From: Pseudomonas phage HPP-Temi
Sequence record: PP968062.1
Length of the DNA stretch: 64,000 bases
Direction: 5' to 3' (one strand)
The notes beneath the pieces were generated by a model. It was given only the letters and a program-made list of their open reading frames with translations, was not told the origin of the DNA and did not search any database. Positions 4,978-54,570 of this stretch are shown piece after piece (within the stretch, counting starts at the first letter, position 1; each line of letters opens with the position of its first letter). The position numbers and the translations under genes are program-made.

Positions 4978-4999
4978 GCCCTCTCCCGAAGGAGAGGGC
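4978..4999 (-). terminator. Hairpin gccctctcc-CGAA-ggagagggc. On the minus strand it is followed by a T9 run (the A9 run on plus).
   Basis: Perfect 9-bp stem with a CGAA loop. It lies directly downstream of minus-strand gene 5011..5250. It is a member of the recurring hairpin family. Confidence 0.6.
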
Positions 5000-5010
5000 T
5001 ATATGTCGTC

Positions 5011-5925: not shown

Positions 5926-5956
5926 GGTATTACTCCTTTAGAGGGGCTATATTCAT

Positions 5957-5998
5957 TGTTGTAATATAGGCTTTAAACCAGTTTAAGTACATACGACA
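5957..5998 (-). promoter_or_regulatory. early-promoter-like element, subfamily B (on minus: ...GCCTATATTACAACA)
   Basis: tgttGTAATATAGGctttaaaccagtttaagtacatacgac. It shares GTAATATAG and TTTAAA..TTT.A..T.CA with the copies at 41151, 53749 and 54525. The CTATATTAC lies ~36 nt upstream of the ATG at 5925. Confidence 0.45.
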
Positions 5999-6302
5999 GG
6001 TTAGCCATAGCAAACAGGGCTACTGTAAAGAACCCAAACCAACCGATGAAGTAGTAACGATAATCACGCCACCACTTGGGAGTATCATAACCATTCGGAT
6101 TGATTACAGCATTACCGATACCCAATACACAGGTCCAGATAGCTGCAACACCAGTAAGGATACTCAGCGTAGTGAACGGTAGATAAATATACGCTGCGAT
6201 AGGGATAGCAATAACCGCAACAAGAATGCAGAACATCAGGTTGGGGAAAGGAAGAGCACCGTGGGGAGCGTTTTCATAAGCGTGTTGAGAGAAAGTAGTC
6301 AT
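5973..6302 (-). CDS. small membrane protein (109 aa, with the start at the internal ATG)
   Basis: The track ORF runs to 6332. The ATG at 6302 has AAGGAAA upstream and avoids overlap with the upstream gene. Hydrophobic stretches include LMFCILVAVIAIPIAAYIYL and FIGWFGFFTVALFAMA. Confidence 0.5.
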   Translation of the reverse strand: MTTFSQHAYENAPHGALPFPNLMFCILVAVIAIPIAAYIYLPFTTLSILTGVAAIWTCVLGIGNAVINPNGYDTPKWWRDYRYYFIGWFGFFTVALFAMANLSYVLKLV

Positions 6303-12339: not shown

Positions 12340-12370
12340 CTATAACTCCTGTTGATTCGTTGGTGCAGAA

Positions 12371-12399
12371 TGATTATATAGATGTGAAAATTATTTTTT
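12371..12399 (-). promoter_or_regulatory. early-promoter-like element, subfamily A variant (on minus: ...ATCTATATAATCA)
   Basis: tgatTATATAGATgtgaaaattattttt, about 32 nt upstream of the beta gene ATG at 12339. Confidence 0.4.
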
Positions 12400-12413
12400 T
12401 GTAGGATTCCTCT

Positions 12414-17366: not shown

Positions 17367-17397
17367 TTATACCTCATTGATGCTGGTGATACACAAC

Positions 17398-17427
17398 TGT
17401 AATATAGATCTGAGATATTTTTTAATG
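17398..17427 (-). promoter_or_regulatory. early-promoter-like element, subfamily A (on minus: CATTAAAAAATATCTCAGATCTATATTACA)
   Basis: tGTAATATAGATCTgagatattttttaatg. Consensus member. Confidence 0.5.
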
Positions 17428-17445
17428 TCAGGAAATAGAGGGCAT

Positions 17446-22409: not shown

Positions 22410-22429
22410 GGAGTCCCCGAAGGGACTCC
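22410..22429 (-). terminator. hairpin ggagtccc-CGAA-gggactcc followed by ATTTATG
   Basis: Family member. Confidence 0.5.
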
Positions 22430-26800: not shown

Positions 26801-26867
26801 GATTTGTTCCTATGTTTGTAACGTTTCTTGATCAAGAATGAGATCCAACAGTGTATTGGATTCAAAA

Positions 26868-26898
26868 CTGTTATATAGATCTCAGATTTTTTTTAATG
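26868..26898 (-). promoter_or_regulatory. early-promoter-like element, subfamily A
   Basis: ctGTTATATAGATCTcagattttttttaatg. Confidence 0.5.
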
Positions 26899-27008
26899 CA
26901 TTATAGACCGGAGGACCCGCTATAAAAGCAAGGTCATTTGAGGACAGTCAGTCTTCACATACTGTATTACATATTTGTTTCCTTAAGATTCAAACTCAGT
27001 ATGCTGAG

Positions 27009-28649: not shown

Positions 28650-28690
28650 TTCATTTTCCTCTTTTGGTATTAGGGTGGATATATCAAAAC

Positions 28691-28720
28691 TATGATATAG
28701 ATTTGAAATTATTTCTAATG
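28691..28720 (-). promoter_or_regulatory. early-promoter-like element, subfamily A variant (TATGATATAGATTTgaaattatttctaatg)
   Basis: Lies 40 nt upstream of the minus-strand start at 28649. It also lies 10 nt upstream of the plus-strand ATG at 28731. Confidence 0.4.
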
Positions 28721-28730
28721 GACGAAAACC

Positions 28731-29821: not shown

Positions 29822-29845
29822 AGCCCCTACCCGAAGGTAGGGGCT
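29822..29845. terminator. hairpin agcccctacc-CGAA-ggtaggggct followed by TTTATG
   Basis: Shared by convergent genes. The same 24-nt hairpin is at 40623. Confidence 0.55.
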
Positions 29846-38711: not shown

Positions 38712-38737
38712 TTTAGTATTCCGGAAATCACTCAGAA

Positions 38738-38768
38738 CTATGATATAGATTTGAAATCTTTTAAAATC
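38738..38768 (-). promoter_or_regulatory. early-promoter-like element, subfamily A variant (cTATGATATAGATTTgaaatcttttaaaatc)
   Basis: Near-identical to the copy at 28691. Confidence 0.4.
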
Positions 38769-38858
38769 GCCACAGAACCCCGTTGTATATGATACCCCTC
38801 CTGGGTATTATCTCCATTAGGGTTTATTCACTGGTGAGCTTCCTAGGGGCGTTAAAAC

Positions 38859-41120: not shown

Positions 41121-41150
41121 GTCGTGATACCTTTAGGGTTTATTATCACG

Positions 41151-41186
41151 TTTGTAATATAGCCTTTAAATTGGTTTGAATGTAAA
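41151..41186 (-). promoter_or_regulatory. early-promoter-like element, subfamily B (TTTGTAATATAGCCTTTAAATTGGTTTGAATGTAA)
   Basis: Identical over 35 nt to the copy at 54525. Confidence 0.5.
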
Positions 41187-41203
41187 AAGAAAAACGGAAT
41201 AAA

Positions 41204-42571: not shown

Positions 42572-43069
42572 TTATGCCGCTTTTTCTTTTGATGTTTCGG
42601 TTAGTAACACACCCCATCCGGGATGACTCTTTCGGTTGAACAGTAACGGCTTACTTCGTATATACGGAGCATCCTCTGTTAGAACGGTGAATGTACAATG
42701 ACCGGGGTTGTCATCAATCTTGAAATAGAAGTTATCTTTCAGGTCATCTACCTTAGTAATGTTCAGTGGAATCAACATCCCACCCCCATGAACATACCAA
42801 CGTTTGTAAATCCTTTTAGCAAGCCTATCCTCGACCACGGGATTAGACTGGAACCGAGCTATCCTCAAACGCATTCCATTGACTTCAGACCACGCATCAA
42901 CTTTGTCGTAACATGTAACTCCGTCCTTCTGGAATACAAATACAAAGCCTTCAAGAACGCCGACTAGTGTGACGGCATGGTGTAACATCGCTGTGTAACT
43001 GGAGAGTTCGAGGTCAAGCTCAGCTGCCATTAGCTCATCGAGCTTTTTCGCTGCTGACTTAGCCATCAT
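42572..43069 (-). CDS. hypothetical protein (165 aa)
   Basis: ORF on the coding strand. Confidence 0.55.
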   Translation of the reverse strand: MMAKSAAKKLDELMAAELDLELSSYTAMLHHAVTLVGVLEGFVFVFQKDGVTCYDKVDAWSEVNGMRLRIARFQSNPVVEDRLAKRIYKRWYVHGGGMLIPLNITKVDDLKDNFYFKIDDNPGHCTFTVLTEDAPYIRSKPLLFNRKSHPGWGVLLTETSKEKAA

Positions 43070-43146
43070 TCCTCCTTAGAGGTTCAATCAGGTTTCATTG
43101 GTGATTCCTTACTTCTGTGGGTTAGTACAAAGGATTGTGGTATCAG

Positions 43147-43569
43147 TTAAAGCTTCGCATAACGCTCATAGCGAGCGATACCACGTTCACTGACGTCCTT
43201 ACGCCACTTAACCATTTCAACGGCGTTCTGACGCGCTACAGTGGCCCAGCCGCGTGCATCATCCATACGGGTACGTTGTTGGATAGGGCTGCCCGACAAT
43301 GCTTCGACGAACTCATCGTCAGGAAGATCTTCTTCTTTGTAGAAGGAATCGTCAGCCTGGATGAAATACACCAGATGCTGGAGAGCTGCTCGGGTTTCTG
43401 AATCGCTAACCAATGCCTTCATTGCAGAACGCATGGTGTTGTTATCGACATCACAGTAGATAGCCAGTTCGCCAATGGTAATACGATCACCTTGGGAAAC
43501 CGTACGCATCAGAGCTTCAGTACTATCAACAGCGATCTTTGTAAAACGTTCAGCGGTAAGCTTGATCAT
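43147..43569 (-). CDS. hypothetical protein (140 aa from the ATG; the track ORF starts at the TTG at 43584)
   Basis: AGGGAA SD. The ATGA overlaps the upstream stop. Confidence 0.5.
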   Translation of the reverse strand: MIKLTAERFTKIAVDSTEALMRTVSQGDRITIGELAIYCDVDNNTMRSAMKALVSDSETRAALQHLVYFIQADDSFYKEEDLPDDEFVEALSGSPIQQRTRMDDARGWATVARQNAVEMVKWRKDVSERGIARYERYAKL

Positions 43570-43808
43570 TTTTGTTCCCTGCAAATGAAAACGATTTTGG
43601 TGGAACGGTTCACGTTACTCACATGGAGTTCGTTATTGTCTCCACGATGATAATCCGCGATCCAGTTATTACTGTTATACAAACTGCGGTGTTGCTGAAC
43701 TACCGCTTTACATACATCAAGAGAAGACACAGGTACAGTTGATTCCTTTACCGATGGAAGTTCGCCAACCACGGCAGTAGAAATAACAGTAGCTAGAACC
43801 CAAGACAT
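43566..43808 (-). CDS. small protein with a signal-peptide-like N-terminus (80 aa)
   Basis: MSWVLATVISTAVVGELPS.... GGAG SD. Confidence 0.5.
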   Translation of the reverse strand: MSWVLATVISTAVVGELPSVKESTVPVSSLDVCKAVVQQHRSLYNSNNWIADYHRGDNNELHVSNVNRSTKIVFICREQK

Positions 43809-43823
43809 AATTAATCTCCAAGA

Positions 43824-43841
43824 CGGAATAAAAGGGGAGCC
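43824..43841 (-). terminator. hairpin ggggagc-CGAA-gctcccc
   Basis: Downstream of the PhuZ gene. Confidence 0.5.
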
Positions 43842-43857
43842 GAAGCTCCCCAGTTAT

Positions 43858-44805
43858 TTACAGAACGAAACCGTCATCAGAACGGTTGTCATCGATATCA
43901 ACGATTGCTGCACGCTGGGTATAGCGAACCTGCTGACGATGGTGTTCTTGTTTCTGATCCAGCAGCGATTTGATGCGTTCCTGAATACCTACCGAATTGA
44001 TTACGAAGTGCAGCTGTTCAGACAGAGCATCTTCATCTTCCGGAGAGGCGATACCAACAGTGCGAACGAACGGGTTACCATAGGCAACTTCTTTCGCGGC
44101 ATCGGTGTACAGGGAAGCAACAGAGATCATCTCGGGAACTGCGGCAGCTTCCTGACGAGAAGTGTGGATGTGCAGTTCACACAGTTGCGGCTGGATGTAG
44201 CTGTGCTTGTTGGTGAAACGAGCCCAGTGATCCAGGTCCAGAACATCCAGACGAGCGTGCTTCTGGTTGGACAGGTAGATCAGCGAGTGTACAGCGAACA
44301 CTGCATCTTTGTCGATCTCGGAGTATGCGACGCCATTGACGTTCTCGATCGGACAGATGCTGATCGGAGTATTGGTTGCAGCAGCGATACCTTCCAGGGT
44401 CTTCATGGTGTCGATGTCGTTCTGAAGAACTTCAGTCGATTCAATACCACTGATGACCACAGCTACAACAGTCTCACCAGCTTTTGCCAGAGCCGATACC
44501 AGCAGCGGACCGAGAACCGAACCAGAACCACCACCCATGGAGAACAGAACAACGTTGAAGTCGCCTGCCGGGTAGCGTTCGAGGAAAGGAGCGATCTGAT
44601 GACGAACCTTCGGCATGATGAATGCACGATTCTTACCTGCACCACGGGTACCCTCTGTCAGGTAGACGCGTTCAAGATCGTGATCAGCAGTCACGTTCTT
44701 ATCGCAGGTATCGATGTACACCAGATCCGGATGCCATTGAAGGTTGACGCCAACGTTCAGACCAGCACCACCACAGCAGTATACACGAGTTTTAACTTTA
44801 GTCAT
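43858..44805 (-). CDS. phuZ: PhuZ-like phage tubulin (315 aa)
   Basis: N-terminal GTP-binding loop RVYCCGGAGLNVG. Tubulin/FtsZ signature variant SMGGGSGSVLGPLL. An acidic C-terminal tail ...DIDDNRSDDGFVL. AGAGGA SD. Confidence 0.8.
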   Translation of the reverse strand: MTKVKTRVYCCGGAGLNVGVNLQWHPDLVYIDTCDKNVTADHDLERVYLTEGTRGAGKNRAFIMPKVRHQIAPFLERYPAGDFNVVLFSMGGGSGSVLGPLLVSALAKAGETVVAVVISGIESTEVLQNDIDTMKTLEGIAAATNTPISICPIENVNGVAYSEIDKDAVFAVHSLIYLSNQKHARLDVLDLDHWARFTNKHSYIQPQLCELHIHTSRQEAAAVPEMISVASLYTDAAKEVAYGNPFVRTVGIASPEDEDALSEQLHFVINSVGIQERIKSLLDQKQEHHRQQVRYTQRAAIVDIDDNRSDDGFVL

Positions 44806-44823
44806 TTCGATGTTTCCTCTTGA

Positions 44824-45126
44824 TTAACCTTCTACGATTGAAATCAGTTCGCCACGCTCAGCTTCGTTGAGCTGGGCAAACAGGTATTCACCTACTTCAG
44901 CAGAGAGGGCTCCGAGTTGCCATTGAGCTTTCTCTTCATCGGTAGCTTGAGCAAACACTTCCGGATGGATTTCTTCCAAGAATACCAGAGCGAGTTTATT
45001 GAACTGGCTCAGGGTATTGATGTTGAACTGGATAATGAACTTGTCGACTGCGCGCTTATCATCAAAGCAAACAGTCTTCGTGGTCATTCCAAAGTGAATG
45101 CTACCAAACTCTTCAATTTCACACAT
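44824..45126 (-). CDS. hypothetical protein (100 aa)
   Basis: ORF on the coding strand. Confidence 0.5.
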   Translation of the reverse strand: MCEIEEFGSIHFGMTTKTVCFDDKRAVDKFIIQFNINTLSQFNKLALVFLEEIHPEVFAQATDEEKAQWQLGALSAEVGEYLFAQLNEAERGELISIVEG

Positions 45127-45149
45127 AGTAACCGTAACTCCGGTATTTG

Positions 45150-45914
45150 TTAGCTAAGAACTAACTCTTGGTCTTTGAACGAATTGAGATAGACTTTAAC
45201 CTGAACATCGACTCCAAGATAGTAACCTACCATCAAGGTTACCGTACAGTTATCGTGAACCATGGTGTTAACAATGGATACATTGTCCAGATTAGCAAAA
45301 TTCTTGATTGTCGGCGTTATCCGATAAATCTTCGGAATCGACTCGAAGTCAAACTCGTGTCTTTCGCTAACCTTCAGCGTATTCAGATCCACGAACGTGA
45401 TTGTCTTTGGACGACAATATTCATCAACTTCGACATGTTTAATCGCAGATGGCGTATTCTCAGGAACTAGAAGCTGATATACACGATCATTACTGTAGAA
45501 AGTAATACGACCCATCTCTTGGTTCAGCCATTCAGTCGGCTTATAGAAACTAACTGAGTGCACCGCGGTATCAAAGCTCATGGAGCTCTGTACATCGAAG
45601 AATACGTAGCCATCGGAGATCATGTGCTCTACCAGTTTCTGATAGTGCTCACCCAGACGGTGTAAAGTTTGGCGAGTAGCAATAGAACCGAAGAACGCAC
45701 CCAAGTTCTGGCGGGTATGCTCCAGGTTAGATTCACTCGGAGCGTAAGTCTCCTCGAACTCTTTCTTGGTAACGTTCCATTCGGAGATCTTCAGGAAGAT
45801 GTCATTGGTAACAGGATGAACTGCACCAAAGGTGATTTCATCTACGTTTTCAATAACTAGGAAGTTTTTAAAGATCTCTTTGATCTTGGGGAACTCGGTT
45901 CCAATGGACTTCAT
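45150..45914 (-). CDS. hypothetical protein (254 aa)
   Basis: ORF on the coding strand. Confidence 0.55.
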   Translation of the reverse strand: MKSIGTEFPKIKEIFKNFLVIENVDEITFGAVHPVTNDIFLKISEWNVTKKEFEETYAPSESNLEHTRQNLGAFFGSIATRQTLHRLGEHYQKLVEHMISDGYVFFDVQSSMSFDTAVHSVSFYKPTEWLNQEMGRITFYSNDRVYQLLVPENTPSAIKHVEVDEYCRPKTITFVDLNTLKVSERHEFDFESIPKIYRITPTIKNFANLDNVSIVNTMVHDNCTVTLMVGYYLGVDVQVKVYLNSFKDQELVLS

Positions 45915-46039
45915 TTCTTTTCCTCTTTGGGGTGTACCAGGAAGGTAAAGCCCGATCCATCATTGTGGATCACCAGTTCCAGAGTACCACCCGTGTTGAT
46001 GGCATGTTGCATGAGACGGTTGTAATTGATTGCGCTCAT
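45911..46039 (-). CDS. small hypothetical protein (42 aa), not in the ORF track
   Basis: GAGGAAA SD, then ATG. MSAINYNRLMQHAINTGGTLELVIHNDGSGFTFLVHPKEEKK. Its stop overlaps the next ATG (AAATGAAG). Confidence 0.35.
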   Translation of the reverse strand: MSAINYNRLMQHAINTGGTLELVIHNDGSGFTFLVHPKEEKK

Positions 46040-46049
46040 TTGTATTTCC

Positions 46050-46271
46050 TCAGATGATGATTTCTGAAACGGGTACCACGCGAATATTCAATACAGTCGG
46101 AGATTGATGCTCGCGACTAACCGTTGCCATTATCACAGCGGGATAAGAGCAACGAATTGTGTTGGGGGAGATCATGTCCACTTTGAATTTCTGGTACATG
46201 TGTTTGATAAGTTCATGGACATCGTCATCGTTTTTTACAAGGAACAAAGAATCGGGGATCAATGTTTTCAT
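46050..46271 (-). CDS. hypothetical protein (73 aa)
   Basis: First gene downstream of the promoter-like element at 46308. Confidence 0.45.
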   Translation of the reverse strand: MKTLIPDSLFLVKNDDDVHELIKHMYQKFKVDMISPNTIRCSYPAVIMATVSREHQSPTVLNIRVVPVSEIII

Positions 46272-46307
46272 TTTTGGTTTTCCAAGTTTTGGGATAGTAT
46301 TCCTCTA

Positions 46308-46335
46308 GGTAATATAGATCTAAGATTATTTTTAC
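46308..46335 (-). promoter_or_regulatory. early-promoter-like element, subfamily A (gGTAATATAGATCTaagattatttttac)
   Basis: Lies 35 nt upstream of the ATG at 46271. It would head an operon that ends with phuZ. Confidence 0.5.
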
Positions 46336-46437
46336 TATTGGGTGGATGGGGCTTTGTAGCCCCACGACACCCTCTTCCAAGTTTTGCGACATAGTCGTTT
46401 TTTGTTTCCCTACCCCTGACTAAAGAATAAGGAAATT

Positions 46438-46475
46438 ATATATGGGACCCCCCCAAAGGGTCCCCCCCACATATA
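46438..46475. repeat. palindromic C7/G7 element TATATGGGACCCCCCCAAAGGGTCCCCCCCACATATA (on minus: G3-N1-G3-N7-G3-N1-G3, a potential G-quadruplex)
   Basis: GGGACCC/GGGTCCC form a 7-bp stem. There are two C7 runs (G7 on the minus strand). It is flanked by the TATATG/CATATA arms. Confidence 0.5.
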
Positions 46476-46612
46476 ATTACTATTTATATAAAAATTCTTT
46501 TAGAAGAAAAAGCTTTGAATAATGAAAATACTCTTTATTAAAGAATTCTATTCTTCTACTACAAATTACTTATGCGCGGCCCGGCCCCGCGAAAAAGAAA
46601 AAAAGAAAGCAA

Positions 46613-46632
46613 CCCTCTCCCGAAGGAGAGGG
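46613..46632. terminator. hairpin ccctctcc-CGAA-ggagaggg, bidirectional
   Basis: On the minus strand it is followed by TTGCTTTCTTTTTTTCTTTTT. On the plus strand it is followed by TTTATGCC. Confidence 0.6.
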
Positions 46633-46641
46633 CTTTATGCC

Positions 46642-47427
46642 TTAACGGTTACTTAGCTTGACCATGGAAACAAATTTATCATCCCAGGTCAGTTTGTCCA
46701 TGTCGAAGTAACGTTGAGGGTACATGGTGAAACCAACAGCCGTACCATGGTAGATGCTATCTGGATCATTCACAGCAATCACAGTAGAACGAGTGTACTC
46801 ACCTGCATAATTTTTCATTATGTGGACGAAGGACTTAATGTTCTTATTGCCTGTCAACCAAGTCATGCGACGCTGAGCTACTTCAGCGAAACGAAGAACT
46901 TCAGAACGTACCCACTGAGGATAATGGGTAACGTTGTTGTTCTCTAGAGGAACGACACGATCGACATCTTCCTCAAGATCACCGAAACTAAAACCGCTTA
47001 CCAAACCAACGATCTGGAAAAAGACTGGCTTCTCTGCCATATCGGTGATGGTTTGATACATGCCGTTACTAGTACAGGCGAAGCCACGATCTGCAAACTC
47101 ATCCATTATGTCGGTGTAAGCTCGCTGAATACGAGGTTCGATCCAGCAGCAACGGTCGACGTAATGTTTAATGAGAAGACCCTTGACGTGCTCTTTGTAA
47201 CTTTCTTCATCGAACGAAGAGTTCAGGCCACGCACGTTCAGATAAGAACGATCACGTCCTTCAAACGTAAATGTAGGCTTACTCCAGCCACTGTGGCTTT
47301 CAACGAACACACGGATGGTGTAGCTGTCCAGCGCGCCATTTCCGGTCACGTTGTACCAAATTGTGTCGAGGTGGTTCTTGGTTAAGCCGAGGTCGAGAGC
47401 ATTGAAACTGAAATCGATGTCAGACAT
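46642..47427 (-). CDS. hypothetical protein (261 aa)
   Basis: AGGAG SD. Confidence 0.6.
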   Translation of the reverse strand: MSDIDFSFNALDLGLTKNHLDTIWYNVTGNGALDSYTIRVFVESHSGWSKPTFTFEGRDRSYLNVRGLNSSFDEESYKEHVKGLLIKHYVDRCCWIEPRIQRAYTDIMDEFADRGFACTSNGMYQTITDMAEKPVFFQIVGLVSGFSFGDLEEDVDRVVPLENNNVTHYPQWVRSEVLRFAEVAQRRMTWLTGNKNIKSFVHIMKNYAGEYTRSTVIAVNDPDSIYHGTAVGFTMYPQRYFDMDKLTWDDKFVSMVKLSNR

Positions 47428-47460
47428 TGTAGACTCCTGTTAGGGGATGGAATATCACTA

Positions 47461-47487
47461 CTGTAATGTAGATCTAAAAACAAATAC
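47461..47487 (-). promoter_or_regulatory. early-promoter-like element, subfamily A variant (ctGTAATGTAGATCTaaaaacaaatac)
   Basis: Lies 35 nt upstream of the ATG at 47427 and immediately after the hairpin at 47496. Confidence 0.4.
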
Positions 47488-47495
47488 AACATAAA

Positions 47496-47513
47496 GCCTC
47501 CCCGAAGGGAGGC
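47496..47513 (-). terminator. hairpin gcctccc-CGAA-gggaggc followed by GTTTATA
   Basis: Family member. Confidence 0.5.
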
Positions 47514-47520
47514 GTTTATA

Positions 47521-47826
47521 TTACTCGATTTCAACCCAAGGGCGAAGATCCATTACGGTCGGAGCAGCTTTCTTGATGTAAGCCAGAATAGCAGCTTTAT
47601 CAACAGTAGGCTTCAAAGCAATACCAATTACGATACTGTCTTTGTTACGAACTAGTTTACGGACCTGGTTGCTCTCCAGACGCTGTTCTTCGAAGAACAG
47701 TTTACTGGGGAAGGGTAAGTCATAGGGAAGCTGGAAAAGCTTATGTAGGACCATTGGAACGGTTTCCAGAGGGGTACCTAGTTCAGCTTTGATTTCTTCC
47801 AGAGTAACTTCAAATTGCGTAGCCAT
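47521..47826 (-). CDS. hypothetical protein (101 aa)
   Basis: AAGGA SD. Confidence 0.5.
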   Translation of the reverse strand: MATQFEVTLEEIKAELGTPLETVPMVLHKLFQLPYDLPFPSKLFFEEQRLESNQVRKLVRNKDSIVIGIALKPTVDKAAILAYIKKAAPTVMDLRPWVEIE

Positions 47827-47835
47827 ATCAAATCC

Positions 47836-48603
47836 TTAGATTGTGTAGTATTCGTGATAACGACGAAGCTTATCGTCATCCAGAGCGATCTCTTGATAAC
47901 TGATAGTGATCTTCATGTGGTTCCACGGAGAACGGAATGCACGACCCGTTAGGGATACTTCACGATAGTCATTTACTTTTTCATCGACCACGGATTCCTC
48001 GAATACAACACCGAGCTTACCGAAACGTTTAATGAGCAGTTCAATGGACCGACCCAGTTCACCAGGAACATCAGGGAACTCAGTAGCAGATGCAATACGG
48101 GGCATTACTACCGGACCGTCTTCAACTTCGTAATTAACTTTGAATACAACTACGCCGAGATCGGTTTTGATGGGACGGAAAATCCGATAGCCGTCTTTAT
48201 TTAGACGCAGAGTGTAACCGTCATCAGGATATGCTTCTTGTAAAGCCTCTAGATGATCCTCCAGTGCACGAACGATACTCCGGTTGTACCGTAGCTCCCT
48301 TTCTCGGTAATCGCGTTCAAACGCTTCTTGGGGGCCTTCTTTTGTGAATTCTTTTACGACCGTATATTCGATTGTCTCACCAGTCAAGTGATCAGTGATA
48401 ATAAACAAATAGGTCATCGCATCGACCAGAGAGTGTTGGACACTGTACCGTTTTACGTCACACGGGACTGCGTCTGCACGCTCTTCTTTGAGATAGTCAA
48501 ACATGTCTTTGAGATGAGCCCATACGTCACAATTCGTACCGAGCCCATCGATGTCAATAGACGTATCTGGAACTTCTCTTTTAGCGCAGCAACTCATACG
48601 CAC
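47836..48603 (-). CDS. hypothetical protein (255 aa)
   Basis: AGAGGTG SD. Confidence 0.6.
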   Translation of the reverse strand: MRMSCCAKREVPDTSIDIDGLGTNCDVWAHLKDMFDYLKEERADAVPCDVKRYSVQHSLVDAMTYLFIITDHLTGETIEYTVVKEFTKEGPQEAFERDYRERELRYNRSIVRALEDHLEALQEAYPDDGYTLRLNKDGYRIFRPIKTDLGVVVFKVNYEVEDGPVVMPRIASATEFPDVPGELGRSIELLIKRFGKLGVVFEESVVDEKVNDYREVSLTGRAFRSPWNHMKITISYQEIALDDDKLRRYHEYYTI

Positions 48604-48653
48604 CTCTATAATGGTATTTAGCTTTCACATGATAAAAGAAAAAGGCGACATAT

Positions 48654-48673
48654 AGCCTCTCCCGAAGGAGAGG
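48654..48673 (-). terminator. hairpin gcctctcc-CGAA-ggagaggc
   Basis: Family member. Confidence 0.5.
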
Positions 48674-48684
48674 CCAATGCCAGG

Positions 48685-49032
48685 TTAGGACTTCACCTGT
48701 TCATCCAGGGAAGCAAGAAACTTCTCCCAAGCGGGGTAAACCCCATCAAGGTAGTAGCTATTCTGAGTAGTCTTTTTCAGGGACTCTACGGAACATTCTT
48801 CAGGATCCCATTGATTATCGCCACCGCTACCAGGACTGAGTCCATAGCAGCTGCAATGTGAACCGTGGACTTCGTAGTACTTACCATCGCGCTCAAAGAG
48901 CACGAAGGCATGACCCGTGTAATCCTCGTATTCATACCACGCAAAAAGAATGGTAGCGTTATCAAGTTCACCGTTAATCAGGCCAAACTCAGAAATTACA
49001 TCTTGCTCACTTTCAAAAATACCGAAGTACAT
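48685..49032 (-). CDS. hypothetical protein (115 aa from the internal ATG)
   Basis: AAAGGTGA lies before the ATG at 49032. The track ORF starts at 49110. Confidence 0.45.
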   Translation of the reverse strand: MYFGIFESEQDVISEFGLINGELDNATILFAWYEYEDYTGHAFVLFERDGKYYEVHGSHCSCYGLSPGSGGDNQWDPEECSVESLKKTTQNSYYLDGVYPAWEKFLASLDEQVKS

Positions 49033-49137
49033 GATTTCACCTTTATGTTGTCTTTGCGGAATGCAAACGCTTTGCATCGTTCGTGCAAGATAGACAACAG
49101 GGAAATCCAACCTGTATTAAATACTAGACATCAGTAT

Positions 49138-49524
49138 TTATTCATCATCAAATTCGATGACTAAACCAATTTTCTCGTAGAGTGAGATCGCTGCCTCATT
49201 CTCTTTGTGGACAACTACTTTCTTAGCTTGGGTGTACCGTACCAGCTGTTCGCCATATCCCATGCCTTGAGCTGACTCTGCAATGTACAGACAGTCTAAA
49301 TGCATTTCAGGAATATAGACGATTGCATAACCACGAAGATCACCATCAAACCAAATACCGTAGGCTTTCCTAGACTGAGCGAAAGCCTTATTGGTTAACA
49401 ACGTTCGGATATTGCCTTTGTAATCAAGCAATGATTCCAGATAGTCAGGGAGGACAACTAGTGTCCTCTCGACTTCTATGAACTCACCGATTACCTCATG
49501 TCGAATCTCACCGATCTCTAACAT
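49138..49524 (-). CDS. GNAT-family N-acetyltransferase-like protein (128 aa)
   Basis: Motif A AESAQGMGYGEQLVRY and motif B NEAAISLYEKIGL. Confidence 0.5.
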   Translation of the reverse strand: MLEIGEIRHEVIGEFIEVERTLVVLPDYLESLLDYKGNIRTLLTNKAFAQSRKAYGIWFDGDLRGYAIVYIPEMHLDCLYIAESAQGMGYGEQLVRYTQAKKVVVHKENEAAISLYEKIGLVIEFDDE

Positions 49525-49527
49525 GGA

Positions 49528-50151
49528 TTACCCAAAGATCTTGACGAACGCCTCCGGCCAAAGCATGGTCGGGAAATCAGCGCCGTTCAGTTCAATAACC
49601 AAAAGACCGCGTTCCAGCTTAAGCCGGATGATATCGGTCTCATCCATTTCGCGTTCAGCTACATTTGCCATGTAGGCAAACACAGCTTCGTTCGGAACCA
49701 TGTAAGTCCCATCCACATATGCCTTTACAACCAGCAGGAAGTTCTGGCAACGGATGTAATAGGTTTCACTGAGTTCATCATAGCAGAACCGAGCACGGAA
49801 TGCCTCACGTTGATACATGGAGTTAATCAGTGCCTCGATATGGCCAATTACAGCCATAGCCTTCATCACAGTGAAGTGAGTGTGATTCGTACTCATCCAG
49901 ATCCGATGAACTTCAGTGGGAGTCAGATCAACAGCGGACATCGGAATCTCGACAGCCGAACTATCGTAGACTTCAATACAGTCGTTGGTGTACTCACCAT
50001 TAACCATGAAGCGGAAGACGTTACCGTCAGCTTCATATTCCCACTGCCGACCTTTCGAGCGAACCAATCCATCCAGAGTTTGAGCAACGATATCAGACTT
50101 GCTAGGGGACTTGAAGATTACTTCCGGGAAATGCAGAGCGGGCTGGGACAT
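49528..50151 (-). CDS. hypothetical protein (207 aa)
   Basis: ORF on the coding strand. Confidence 0.55.
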   Translation of the reverse strand: MSQPALHFPEVIFKSPSKSDIVAQTLDGLVRSKGRQWEYEADGNVFRFMVNGEYTNDCIEVYDSSAVEIPMSAVDLTPTEVHRIWMSTNHTHFTVMKAMAVIGHIEALINSMYQREAFRARFCYDELSETYYIRCQNFLLVVKAYVDGTYMVPNEAVFAYMANVAEREMDETDIIRLKLERGLLVIELNGADFPTMLWPEAFVKIFG

Positions 50152-51165: not shown

Positions 51166-51202
51166 AACACAAAACCTCTTTTAACGGATTGATTTAGCTT
51201 GC

Positions 51203-51230
51203 ATGTAATATAGATCTAAGATAATTTTTA
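51203..51230 (-). promoter_or_regulatory. early-promoter-like element, subfamily A (atGTAATATAGATCTaagataattttta)
   Basis: Consensus member. Confidence 0.5.
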
Positions 51231-51264
51231 GCGCAATGATCTGATTAATCCAAGAGGTATAGCC

Positions 51265-53717: not shown

Positions 53718-53748
53718 TCGTAGACTCCTATTGGGGTATTGAATTCAC

Positions 53749-53787
53749 ATTTGTAATATAGTCTTTAAATAGACTTCAATGTAAGAC
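53749..53787 (-). promoter_or_regulatory. early-promoter-like element, subfamily B (TTTGTAATATAGTCTTTAAATAGACTTCAATGTAAGACG)
   Basis: Contains the internal palindrome AGTCTttaaatAGACT. Confidence 0.45.
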
Positions 53788-53794
53788 GACATAA

Positions 53795-54460: not shown

Positions 54461-54524
54461 GGTATTCTCCTATTGAGTTTGAAAAGCCAACCATTTGGCC
54501 TTTTCTAATGGGGTATTGATCACC

Positions 54525-54565
54525 TTTGTAATATAGCCTTTAAATTGGTTTGAATGTAAGACGGC
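54525..54565 (-). promoter_or_regulatory. early-promoter-like element, subfamily B
   Basis: Identical over 35 nt to the copy at 41151. It lies ~65 nt upstream of the ATG at 54460. Confidence 0.5.
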
Positions 54566-54570
54566 ATAAA

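Follow-up and report, generated by a model that had tools for sequence, protein, structure and literature searches.

A conserved single-copy palindrome heading the PhuZ operon of Pseudomonas chimalliviruses, tentatively read as part of a sense-strand transcription or RNA control module

The 64,000-nucleotide (nt) stretch of Pseudomonas phage HPP-Temi analysed here (record PP968062.1), called the window throughout, belongs to a phiKZ-like (Chimalliviridae) Pseudomonas jumbo phage and is ~80-82% identical to Pawinskivirus PS119XW, PA1C and their relatives. An earlier note, made from the sequence alone, had singled out a G/C-rich palindrome at 46438-46475 of the window; the minus strand there reads TATATGTGGGGGGGACCCTTTGGGGGGGTCCCATATAT, exactly as that note gave it. 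The palindrome and its surroundings amount to a conserved non-coding element of Pseudomonas chimalliviruses for which no description was found in the literature searched. The reading favoured here, which is tentative and falls somewhat short of an even chance, is that a conserved control module of transcription or RNA, single-copy and on the sense strand, heads the operon of the tubulin PhuZ and has the palindrome as its apex. The surrounding genes lie on the minus strand on both sides, so the G-rich strand is the sense (non-template) strand, which agrees with the placement proposed earlier. The intergenic gap holding the palindrome spans 46272-46641. That it is the longest non-coding gap of the window could not be verified, since it measures 370 nt against 393-504 nt for three candidate gaps elsewhere in a crude tiling of open reading frames (ORFs).

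An 86-nt query around the palindrome matched exactly one location in each of 61 Pseudomonas jumbo-phage records, comprising phiKZ and ~40 close relatives, PhiPA3, Psa21, RVTF4 and D6, with weaker matches in 201phi2-1 and Noxifer. The window (by covariance model scan) and phiKZ 1-50 kb likewise hold a single copy. Throughout the genomes examined, the element occupies the gap that heads the PhuZ-containing operon, in the orientation of PhuZ and 0.3-3.5 kb upstream of it, while the upstream and intervening genes vary between phages. The element is linked to the downstream PhuZ operon and not to the variable genes that precede it. In phiKZ it follows Dip (gp37), and a single gene separates it from PhuZ; in the window it holds the same position, preceded there by an unrelated gene of 261 aa and separated from PhuZ by four genes. 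No similarity could be detected between the 261-aa protein and phiKZ gp37.

The core of ~35 nt is identical or nearly so in Pawinskivirus, phiKZ, PhiPA3, Psa21, RVTF4 and D6, although PhuZ of the window shares only 38% identity with that of phiKZ or Psa21. Among the window and six Pawinskivirus genomes, mean column identity is 97% in the intergenic region as against ~82% in the surrounding 1.1 kb. When a 7-kb query (43000-50000) was compared with phiKZ, only two blastn islands were recovered, the element (81%) and part of a virion structural gene (67-69%). Conservation of the element spans ~120 nt of sequence, including the non-pairing flanks and the apex. This island is ~80-100% identical while neighbouring proteins drop to 38% or lose detectable homology, and it is thus among the most strongly constrained sequences of these genomes.

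The C7 runs at 46448-46454 and 46462-46468 are the only G/C runs of six or more in the window, so that the claim of their uniqueness stands. Two such runs per 64 kb are unremarkable alone (shuffle mean 2.9). Chance does not account for their pairing at a distance of 14 nt or, still less, for their conservation in more than 60 independent genomes. The earlier note had also raised the possibilities that the homopolymers are assembly artefacts and that close relatives lack the element. The element is retained in related phages, and the artefact reading is excluded because more than 60 independently assembled genomes share it. No match to the core was found among 185,579 bacterial and archaeal genomes; the core was therefore not copied from a host, and mimicry of a host sequence is ruled out.

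The stem is longer than had been proposed. In the minimum-energy fold, AATTATATGTGGGG at 46465-46478 pairs with TCCCATATATAATT at 46434-46447 to give a 14-bp stem with two G.U pairs; above it lie a guanine internal loop and a short CCC/GGG helix, and the apical G/C-rich region occupies 46448-46464. The TATATG/CATATA arms described previously are present, but they reach further and form part of this stem. GGGACCC and GGGTCCC are complementary as stated, yet the 7-bp register that they define is not the best-supported pairing: in phiHQ, a T-to-C change in GGGTCCC creates an A.C mismatch in the 7-bp hairpin and converts a G.U to a G-C pair in the 14-bp stem. The same column holds G.U in nine sequences and G-C in eight. 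Folded as DNA, the 38-mer gives an 8-bp stem on the minus strand and a 7-bp stem on the plus strand, and its folding advantage over shuffles is only modest (z = -1.9 and -1.6; -2.5 for a 64-mer).

Covariation was counted on an alignment of 18 sequences, with slid partners and 500 shuffles as controls. In the 14-bp stem, 94.3% of cells are paired, compared with 39-54% in the slid controls, and double changes occur in five pairs (AU/UA, UA/AU/GC, AU/GC, UA/CG, GC/AU) compared with 0-1. None of the 500 shuffles reached the observed covariation score. Compensatory versions of the lower stem include AATTATATG / CATATATAATT, AATAGTATG / CATATACTATT, AATAATATG / CATATATTATT, AATATTAT / ATAATATT, ATATTG / CAATAT and ATTTATAGGGG / CCCCTATAAAT. 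The same 14-bp stem was recovered independently by RNAalifold. A covariance model built from the alignment scores 94 bits on the minus strand and 24 bits on the plus strand at the element, with at most 19 bits elsewhere in the window. With compensatory substitutions beyond those of the controls, the element is a candidate structured cis-regulatory RNA hairpin of the generic kind. In all 18 aligned variants a hairpin stands between the flanks, with guanines prevailing in its 5′ arm and cytosines in its 3′ arm. Between phages the length of the first G-run varies (6, 7 or 9 nt), whereas the second is always 7; the surplus guanines are unpaired in the internal loop of the long-stem fold, which also favours the 14-bp register. 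This length variation is compatible with the suggestion that the runs are a hotspot of polymerase slippage.

The element is also asymmetric between strands. In 17/17 variants the sense strand folds 0.6-9.4 kcal/mol better than its complement, owing to several stem positions at which a G.U pair of the sense strand would be A.C in the complement. These predicted folds suggest, though they do not prove, that sense-strand RNA, or sense DNA in single-stranded form, adopts the structure.

The hairpin is bordered by conserved motifs. Upstream, ATAAAKAGTA is present in 18/18 aligned variants and in none of the published promoter consensuses compared. Downstream, TTCCTTATTCTTAG is invariant and the motif TTCMTTATTMYT(W)AG is constant across the 18 variants. 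In the divergent Noxifer and in a metagenomic locus (L137) the flanks are only partly kept; the downstream motif is present there too. The adjoining AT-rich tract is the lowest-GC 100 nt of the window (next lowest 28%) and is ~81% identical to phiKZ; the other low-GC spots of the window are early promoters.

More distant variants were collected from PhuZ-anchored IMG/VR loci and by a metagenome pattern scan. A different apex between the same flanks is carried by 201phi2-1, L133-L136, L271, Phabio (L143), Noxifer, L137 and L273, and L274 combines the apex of the window with a variant lower stem. Apex type and PhuZ similarity are incongruent among the loci compared (L132-L144): 201phi2-1-like phages, with PhuZ 47-52% identical to that of the window, have a different apex, and phiKZ and Psa21, at 38%, carry the apex of the window exactly. 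This suggests a lineage-specific switch of recognition partner, or exchange of the element between phages. The first IMG/VR pattern scan returned mostly chance matches, and an apparent second family (L021, L033 and others) turned out to be coding sequence and was dropped; the second scan yielded, among the matches listed, at least one further copy, which nearly duplicates the L140-type group-1 variant. At the PhuZ loci L138, L142 and L145-L148, on other contigs, no homologue of the element was found by nhmmer, covariance model or hairpin scan. Matches of a 341-nt query to Salmonella and Erwinia phages fall solely in the adjacent terminator and early promoter and leave the element uncovered. 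In D6-like phages a C9-C10 homopolymer (TTAGACCCCCCCCC / TTAGTACCCCCCCCCC) directly follows the element (D6, L012, ~2560-2575; L139 and L140, ~4990-5005; L259); it is absent in the window. This run could pair with the G-runs of the element.

The relation of the element to known promoters was assessed with a position weight matrix for early promoters, built from 14 sites of the window and phiKZ. The matrix gives 36-57 for the training promoters, 13-39 for further variant sites and -6.6 at the element, and it sets seven training promoters and ~5 variant sites, all on the minus strand, apart from background. With this score, and with no match to the extended consensus A-rich...TTTAAAG.CTATATTAC-N5-TG, the element is ruled out as an early promoter. 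The stretch from the element to the next gene is free of canonical early promoters in Psa21, RVTF4, D6, 201phi2-1 and phiKZ. Directly before the G-run the element carries TATG. The late promoters of phiKZ, used by the non-virion RNA polymerase (nvRNAP), have the consensus T(-3)ATG(+1) (PMC4666361, PMC7598289, PMC12809450); according to the phiKZ literature TATG is necessary there but not sufficient, and undefined downstream sequence also counts. TATG is kept in 16/20 distinct variants of the element, and by itself it is frequent in the genome.

On the favoured reading, the AT tract, ATAAAKAGTA and TATG would constitute a dedicated promoter, probably for the non-virion RNA polymerase; alternatively, the element could be transcribed by read-through from the upstream unit. 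The transcript would fold into a long hairpin, whose 14-bp stem is AU-rich at the base and G-rich/C-rich at the top, followed by the pyrimidine/U-rich tail UUUCCUUAUUCUUUAG with the UUAU signature of the terminators of this phage group. Because a hairpin is followed by a UUAU-bearing tail, it is proposed to attenuate or terminate transcription in the leader and/or to stabilise a transcript end. In this capacity it might set the level of transcription into the PhuZ operon, or release a short hairpin RNA. A phage factor may recognise the sequence-invariant apex. Short RNAs terminated close to their promoter are reported as common in phiKZ (17 candidates) and 201phi2-1 (11).

Several observations weigh against this model. 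TATG is missing in Phabio, Noxifer, L137 and L273, and a start at the G of TATG would exclude the 5′ arm of the covarying stem from the RNA. The window has a terminator upstream of the element and an early promoter downstream of it, so that the gap may be poorly transcribed. The likeness to terminators is partial: the element lacks the C-rich 5′ arm, the 4-nt loop and the directly adjacent tail of their stems. An outer helix, AAUAG/UUAUU, was considered as an extension of the structure and rejected; it shows no covariation, and two variants break it with no compensating change; the flanks are therefore constrained as sequence and not as a helix. Finally, a symmetric DNA-binding site would also give compensatory changes in a palindrome.

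The last point leads to the alternative of a cis site acting at the DNA level, namely a replication origin, a packaging start or the binding site of a symmetric protein, in which the AT tract would unwind and the GC palindrome would serve for recognition or priming. This is considered unlikely, though it is the chief competitor of the favoured reading. There is strictly one copy per ~300-kb genome, and sequence, not just structure, is conserved over the ~120 nt. The most AT-rich tract of the window adjoins its only G7/C7 runs, as is expected of an origin with an AT tract next to a palindrome, and several small palindromes lie within the tract. In L273 a direct repeat, G7ACCC / G4AGGACC, is kept while pairing is weakened. 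The incongruent apex distribution resembles that expected from co-evolution with a binding protein, and no origin or packaging (pac) site for these phages was found in the literature searched. On the other side, there is no inflection of GC skew at the element and the genes on both sides run in the same direction, which is not the pattern of an origin; the consistent folding advantage of the sense strand and the G.U pairs point to RNA; AT-richness is also typical of the promoters of this phage; and the element bears no relation to the ends of the deposited linear records. A specific version, argued by analogy with mitochondrial conserved sequence block II (CSB II) and the T4 and ColE1 origins, would make the module a replication origin at which transcription from TATG over the G-runs leaves an R-loop or a primer stabilised by a G-quadruplex (G4) beside the melting tract, or else a packaging start; taken by itself this version is rather improbable.

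Alternatively, the hairpin could do no more than act as an intrinsic terminator of the upstream unit or insulate the PhuZ operon from it, which is judged improbable. It is followed by a U-rich tail with the UUAU signature, among the strong hairpins that follow the upstream gene it comes first in phiKZ, Psa21, RVTF4 and 201phi2-1, and a terminator scan predicted a weak terminator-like site at the element. The published motif of phiKZ-type terminators is BCCYCCCCHWWDGGGRRGGBYTTATKYYGT (Putzeys et al. 2024, PMC10914365), and CTTATTCT at 46423-46430 fits its YTTATKYY tail. The canonical terminators of the window, however, look different, with a GC stem of 7-10 bp, a C-rich 5′ arm, a tetraloop and a TTTATGYYGT tail directly after the stem, and terminators of this kind diverge fast; the neighbouring one is not conserved in phiKZ. 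A plain terminator would leave the invariant apex, the conserved 70-100 nt upstream and the single copy unexplained, and the window already has a canonical terminator 130 nt upstream. Examples of the canonical type lie at 22410-22429, 29822-29845, 43834-43851, 46613-46632 and 47496-47513. Several terminators of the window, even amid genes running in the same direction, look bidirectional because a TTAT-type tail is present on both strands; judged from its sequence, the one at 46611-46634 looks bidirectional as well.

According to the earlier note, the sense strand could form a G-quadruplex and the opposite DNA strand an i-motif. The minus strand of the window does match the canonical motif G3N1G3N7G3N1G3 (loops 1, 7, 1), with a G4Hunter maximum of 1.92 over 25 nt, and every variant keeps a G-rich 5′ arm (G4Hunter 1.1-2.2), which is always on the sense strand. 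The motif itself is present in only 7/20 distinct variants. In PS119XW, PhiPA3 and RVTF4 the core differs from that of the window by G6 only and the motif is lost, as it is in all variants with another apex. The complementary C-tracts compete for the same guanines, and the covariation backs Watson-Crick and wobble pairing that uses them. A G-quadruplex (in the sense strand or its RNA) or i-motif as the functional structure is thus very unlikely. The broader suggestion of a regulatory structure holds in so far as a selected, structure-forming element lies in a regulatory gap; what is conserved in it is not the capacity for a G4 or i-motif. The analysis shows that a textbook G4 motif can arise as a by-product when selection acts on another feature.

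A small protein encoded on the plus strand (MGPPQRVPP...), as annotated in some GenBank records (PA1C QBX32174.1, HHBS36_1 XOD41792.1, phiHQ XYM48902.1, PhiPA3 gp023 YP_009217105.1, D6 WDS62408.1) and preceded by AAGGA 8 nt before its ATG, is hardly credible and was ruled out: neither frame nor start codon is conserved, the ORF follows the length of the G-run (10 aa in phiKZ, 26 aa in the window), the 201phi2-1 group has no start codon at this place, and the Shine-Dalgarno-like AAGGA becomes AATGA in Psa21, D6 and 201phi2-1. Because frame and length depend on homopolymer length, the annotated ORFs are probably annotation artefacts.

Table 1. Features of the palindrome locus and early-type promoters of the window.
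Feature	Position	Strand	Remarks
261-aa gene	46642-47427	minus	upstream of the gap; variant early promoter in front
Canonical terminator hairpin of the 261-aa gene	46611-46634		T-run on minus strand; phage-typical CTTTATGCC tail on plus strand
GC-rich hairpin CGCGGGGCCGGGCCGCG, then CATAAGTAAT	46575-46591		conserved in several genera
AT-rich tract	46471-46570		adjoins the hairpin; 17% GC
Small upstream hairpin(s), AAGAAT-AGA-ATTCTT / CTTTA-A-TAAAG	46534-46555	minus	read by eye
Small palindrome TTCTTCTAAAAGAA	46495-46508		inside the AT tract
Upstream flank motif ATAAATAGTA (consensus ATAAAKAGTA)	46478-46487	minus	unique in the window
Full hairpin	46434-46478	minus	RNA folds of 17 variants, covariation, RNAalifold, covariance model
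Core palindrome TATATG-T-G7-ACCC-TTT-G7-TCCC-ATATAT	46438-46475	minus	
TATG	46470-46473	minus	G-run immediately after
Downstream flank motif TTTCCTTATTCTTTAGT	46419-46435	minus	pyrimidine-rich
Further predicted hairpins	46340-46435	minus	~100 nt downstream of the element
Canonical early (virion RNA polymerase-type) promoter ...TCTTAGATCTATATTAC...	46297-46347	minus	drives the 73-aa-to-PhuZ operon; matrix score 38.8, among the 12 top sites
Operon genes after the early promoter (73, 42, 254 and 100 aa)			followed by PhuZ
Tubulin PhuZ	43858-44805		
Early-type promoters	5949-5999, 12361-12411, 17387-17437, 26858-26908, 28680-28730, 38728-38778, 41142-41192, 46297-46347, 47451-47501, 51193-51243, 53741-53791, 54516-54566	minus	

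Other features of the gap are given in Table 1. Within the AT tract, the small palindrome has counterparts in relatives (TTTTCTTAAAAGAAAA; CCTTAAAAGG in L133); a palindrome TTTTCTT-AA-AAGAAAA occurs as CCTT-AA-AAGG in L133. The small upstream hairpin appears to covary among relatives when read by eye, with no formal count: counterparts are CTYC-GAYA-GRAG, occurring as CTTC-GATA-GAAG and CTCC-GAYA-GGAG, as well as GATAAAC-TT-GTTTATC and AGATC-GAATA-GATCT. The relatives compared for these small hairpins and palindromes were L008, L009, L011, L012, L133-L136, L271 and L274. Upstream of the tract, a GC-rich hairpin with CATAAGTAAT-like sequence is also seen in PhiPA3 (L008, ~2408-2440) and Psa21 (L009, ~2496-2516); in D6-like phages the stretch matching this site apparently encodes the C-terminal, Arg/Ala-rich end of an ORF that is not annotated.

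Downstream of the element, the region 46340-46435 is nearly invariant between the window and Pawinskivirus (coding DNA ~82%) and is partly kept in PhiPA3. Three further hairpins are predicted in it, in one of which a CU-rich motif pairs with AGGGGTAGGGAAA. Covariation is weak here: no more than two pairs are compensatory, and PhiPA3 aligns poorly. Of these hairpins at least the last is retained in PhiPA3, with a G-C to A-U exchange (GGGGC/GCCCC versus GGGAC/GTCCC). Going by sequence comparison, the region may be part of one longer non-coding RNA in the window, Pawinskivirus and the PhiPA3 genus. Across the window, the ~12 early-type promoters share the consensus ACATT.AAA....TTTAAAG.CTATATTAC-N5-TG, almost identical to that of phiKZ; one-base variants among them are CTACATTAC, CTATATAAC and CTATATCAT.

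A search of the window against Rfam gave no match at the gathering threshold and, at E up to 10, sub-threshold chance matches only; ARAGORN found no tRNA. The core sequence string was not found in the literature searched, and the locus is not described in the transcriptome literature on phiKZ and 201phi2-1, the Grad-seq literature, two Tn-seq preprints or a 2026 review, the supplementary tables of transcription start and termination sites lying outside this search. A conserved small RNA of 201phi2-1 (upstream of gp277 / phiKZ gp182) and non-coding RNAs seen by Grad-seq (in the 3′ untranslated region (UTR) of PHIKZ298 and the 5′ UTR of p40) come from other loci. Chimalliviruses, which are phiKZ-like and nucleus-forming, are important models and candidates for phage therapy, and their replication origin, packaging site and most of their RNA-level regulation are not described in the literature searched. 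Whatever recognises the element, be it a polymerase, an RNA-binding protein or a replication or packaging factor, probably has a central part in the infection cycle. The element offers a small and precise target for mutagenesis, a bait for its binding factor and a diagnostic marker of the phage group.

When compared with known systems, the element shares features with several of them. With transcription-primed origins that contain G-rich elements (mitochondrial CSB II, ColE1 RNA II, T4 oriF/oriG) it shares a promoter-like site, the placement of its G-runs on the non-template strand and an extreme AT tract alongside; it differs in that the AT tract lies upstream of the sense TATG and not downstream, and in that number and spacing of the G-tracts are not conserved. 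Like the centromere-like sites ahead of tubulin/actin partition operons (tubC of TubZRC, parC of ParMRC), it is a unique, repeat-containing DNA site, here just upstream of the operon of a tubulin homologue. It has only two 11-nt direct repeats, however, and six PhuZ loci from other contigs are without it. No TubR-like adaptor is known; PhuZ filaments are cytoplasmic, and the phage DNA is enclosed in the phage nucleus. The window fits the canonical G4 motif (G3+N1-7)x4 exactly, but homologues do not conserve it and its guanines are used in the covarying helix.

Other likenesses are to phage transcription signals and leader hairpins. The TATG directly preceding the G-run in most variants matches the consensus of phiKZ late promoters, whereas ATAAAKAGTA has no place in that consensus and four variants of the element are without TATG. 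With phiKZ-type terminators it shares a G/C-rich hairpin followed by a pyrimidine-rich tail with TTAT, and with the short terminated RNAs of phiKZ a position in a 5′ UTR or intergenic region, where such RNAs are reported. The arms are reversed relative to these terminators (G-rich 5′, C-rich 3′) and there is no tetraloop; the lower stem is AU-rich and 10 bp long, TTAT lies 13 nt from the GC helix, and the element is single-copy and sequence-invariant across genera, with conserved upstream flanks. Phage leader hairpins, such as lambda nut/boxB, HK022 put, T7 RNase III sites and 5′-terminal stabilisers, are likewise single- or low-copy hairpins at operon boundaries, with a sequence-specific apex, a covarying stem and specificity for the sense strand; the element differs in having no sequence or Rfam similarity to them, and these phages use non-canonical RNA polymerases. 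The element combines features of a late promoter motif, a leader hairpin and a terminator tail, in an arrangement that conforms to the definition of none of the three.

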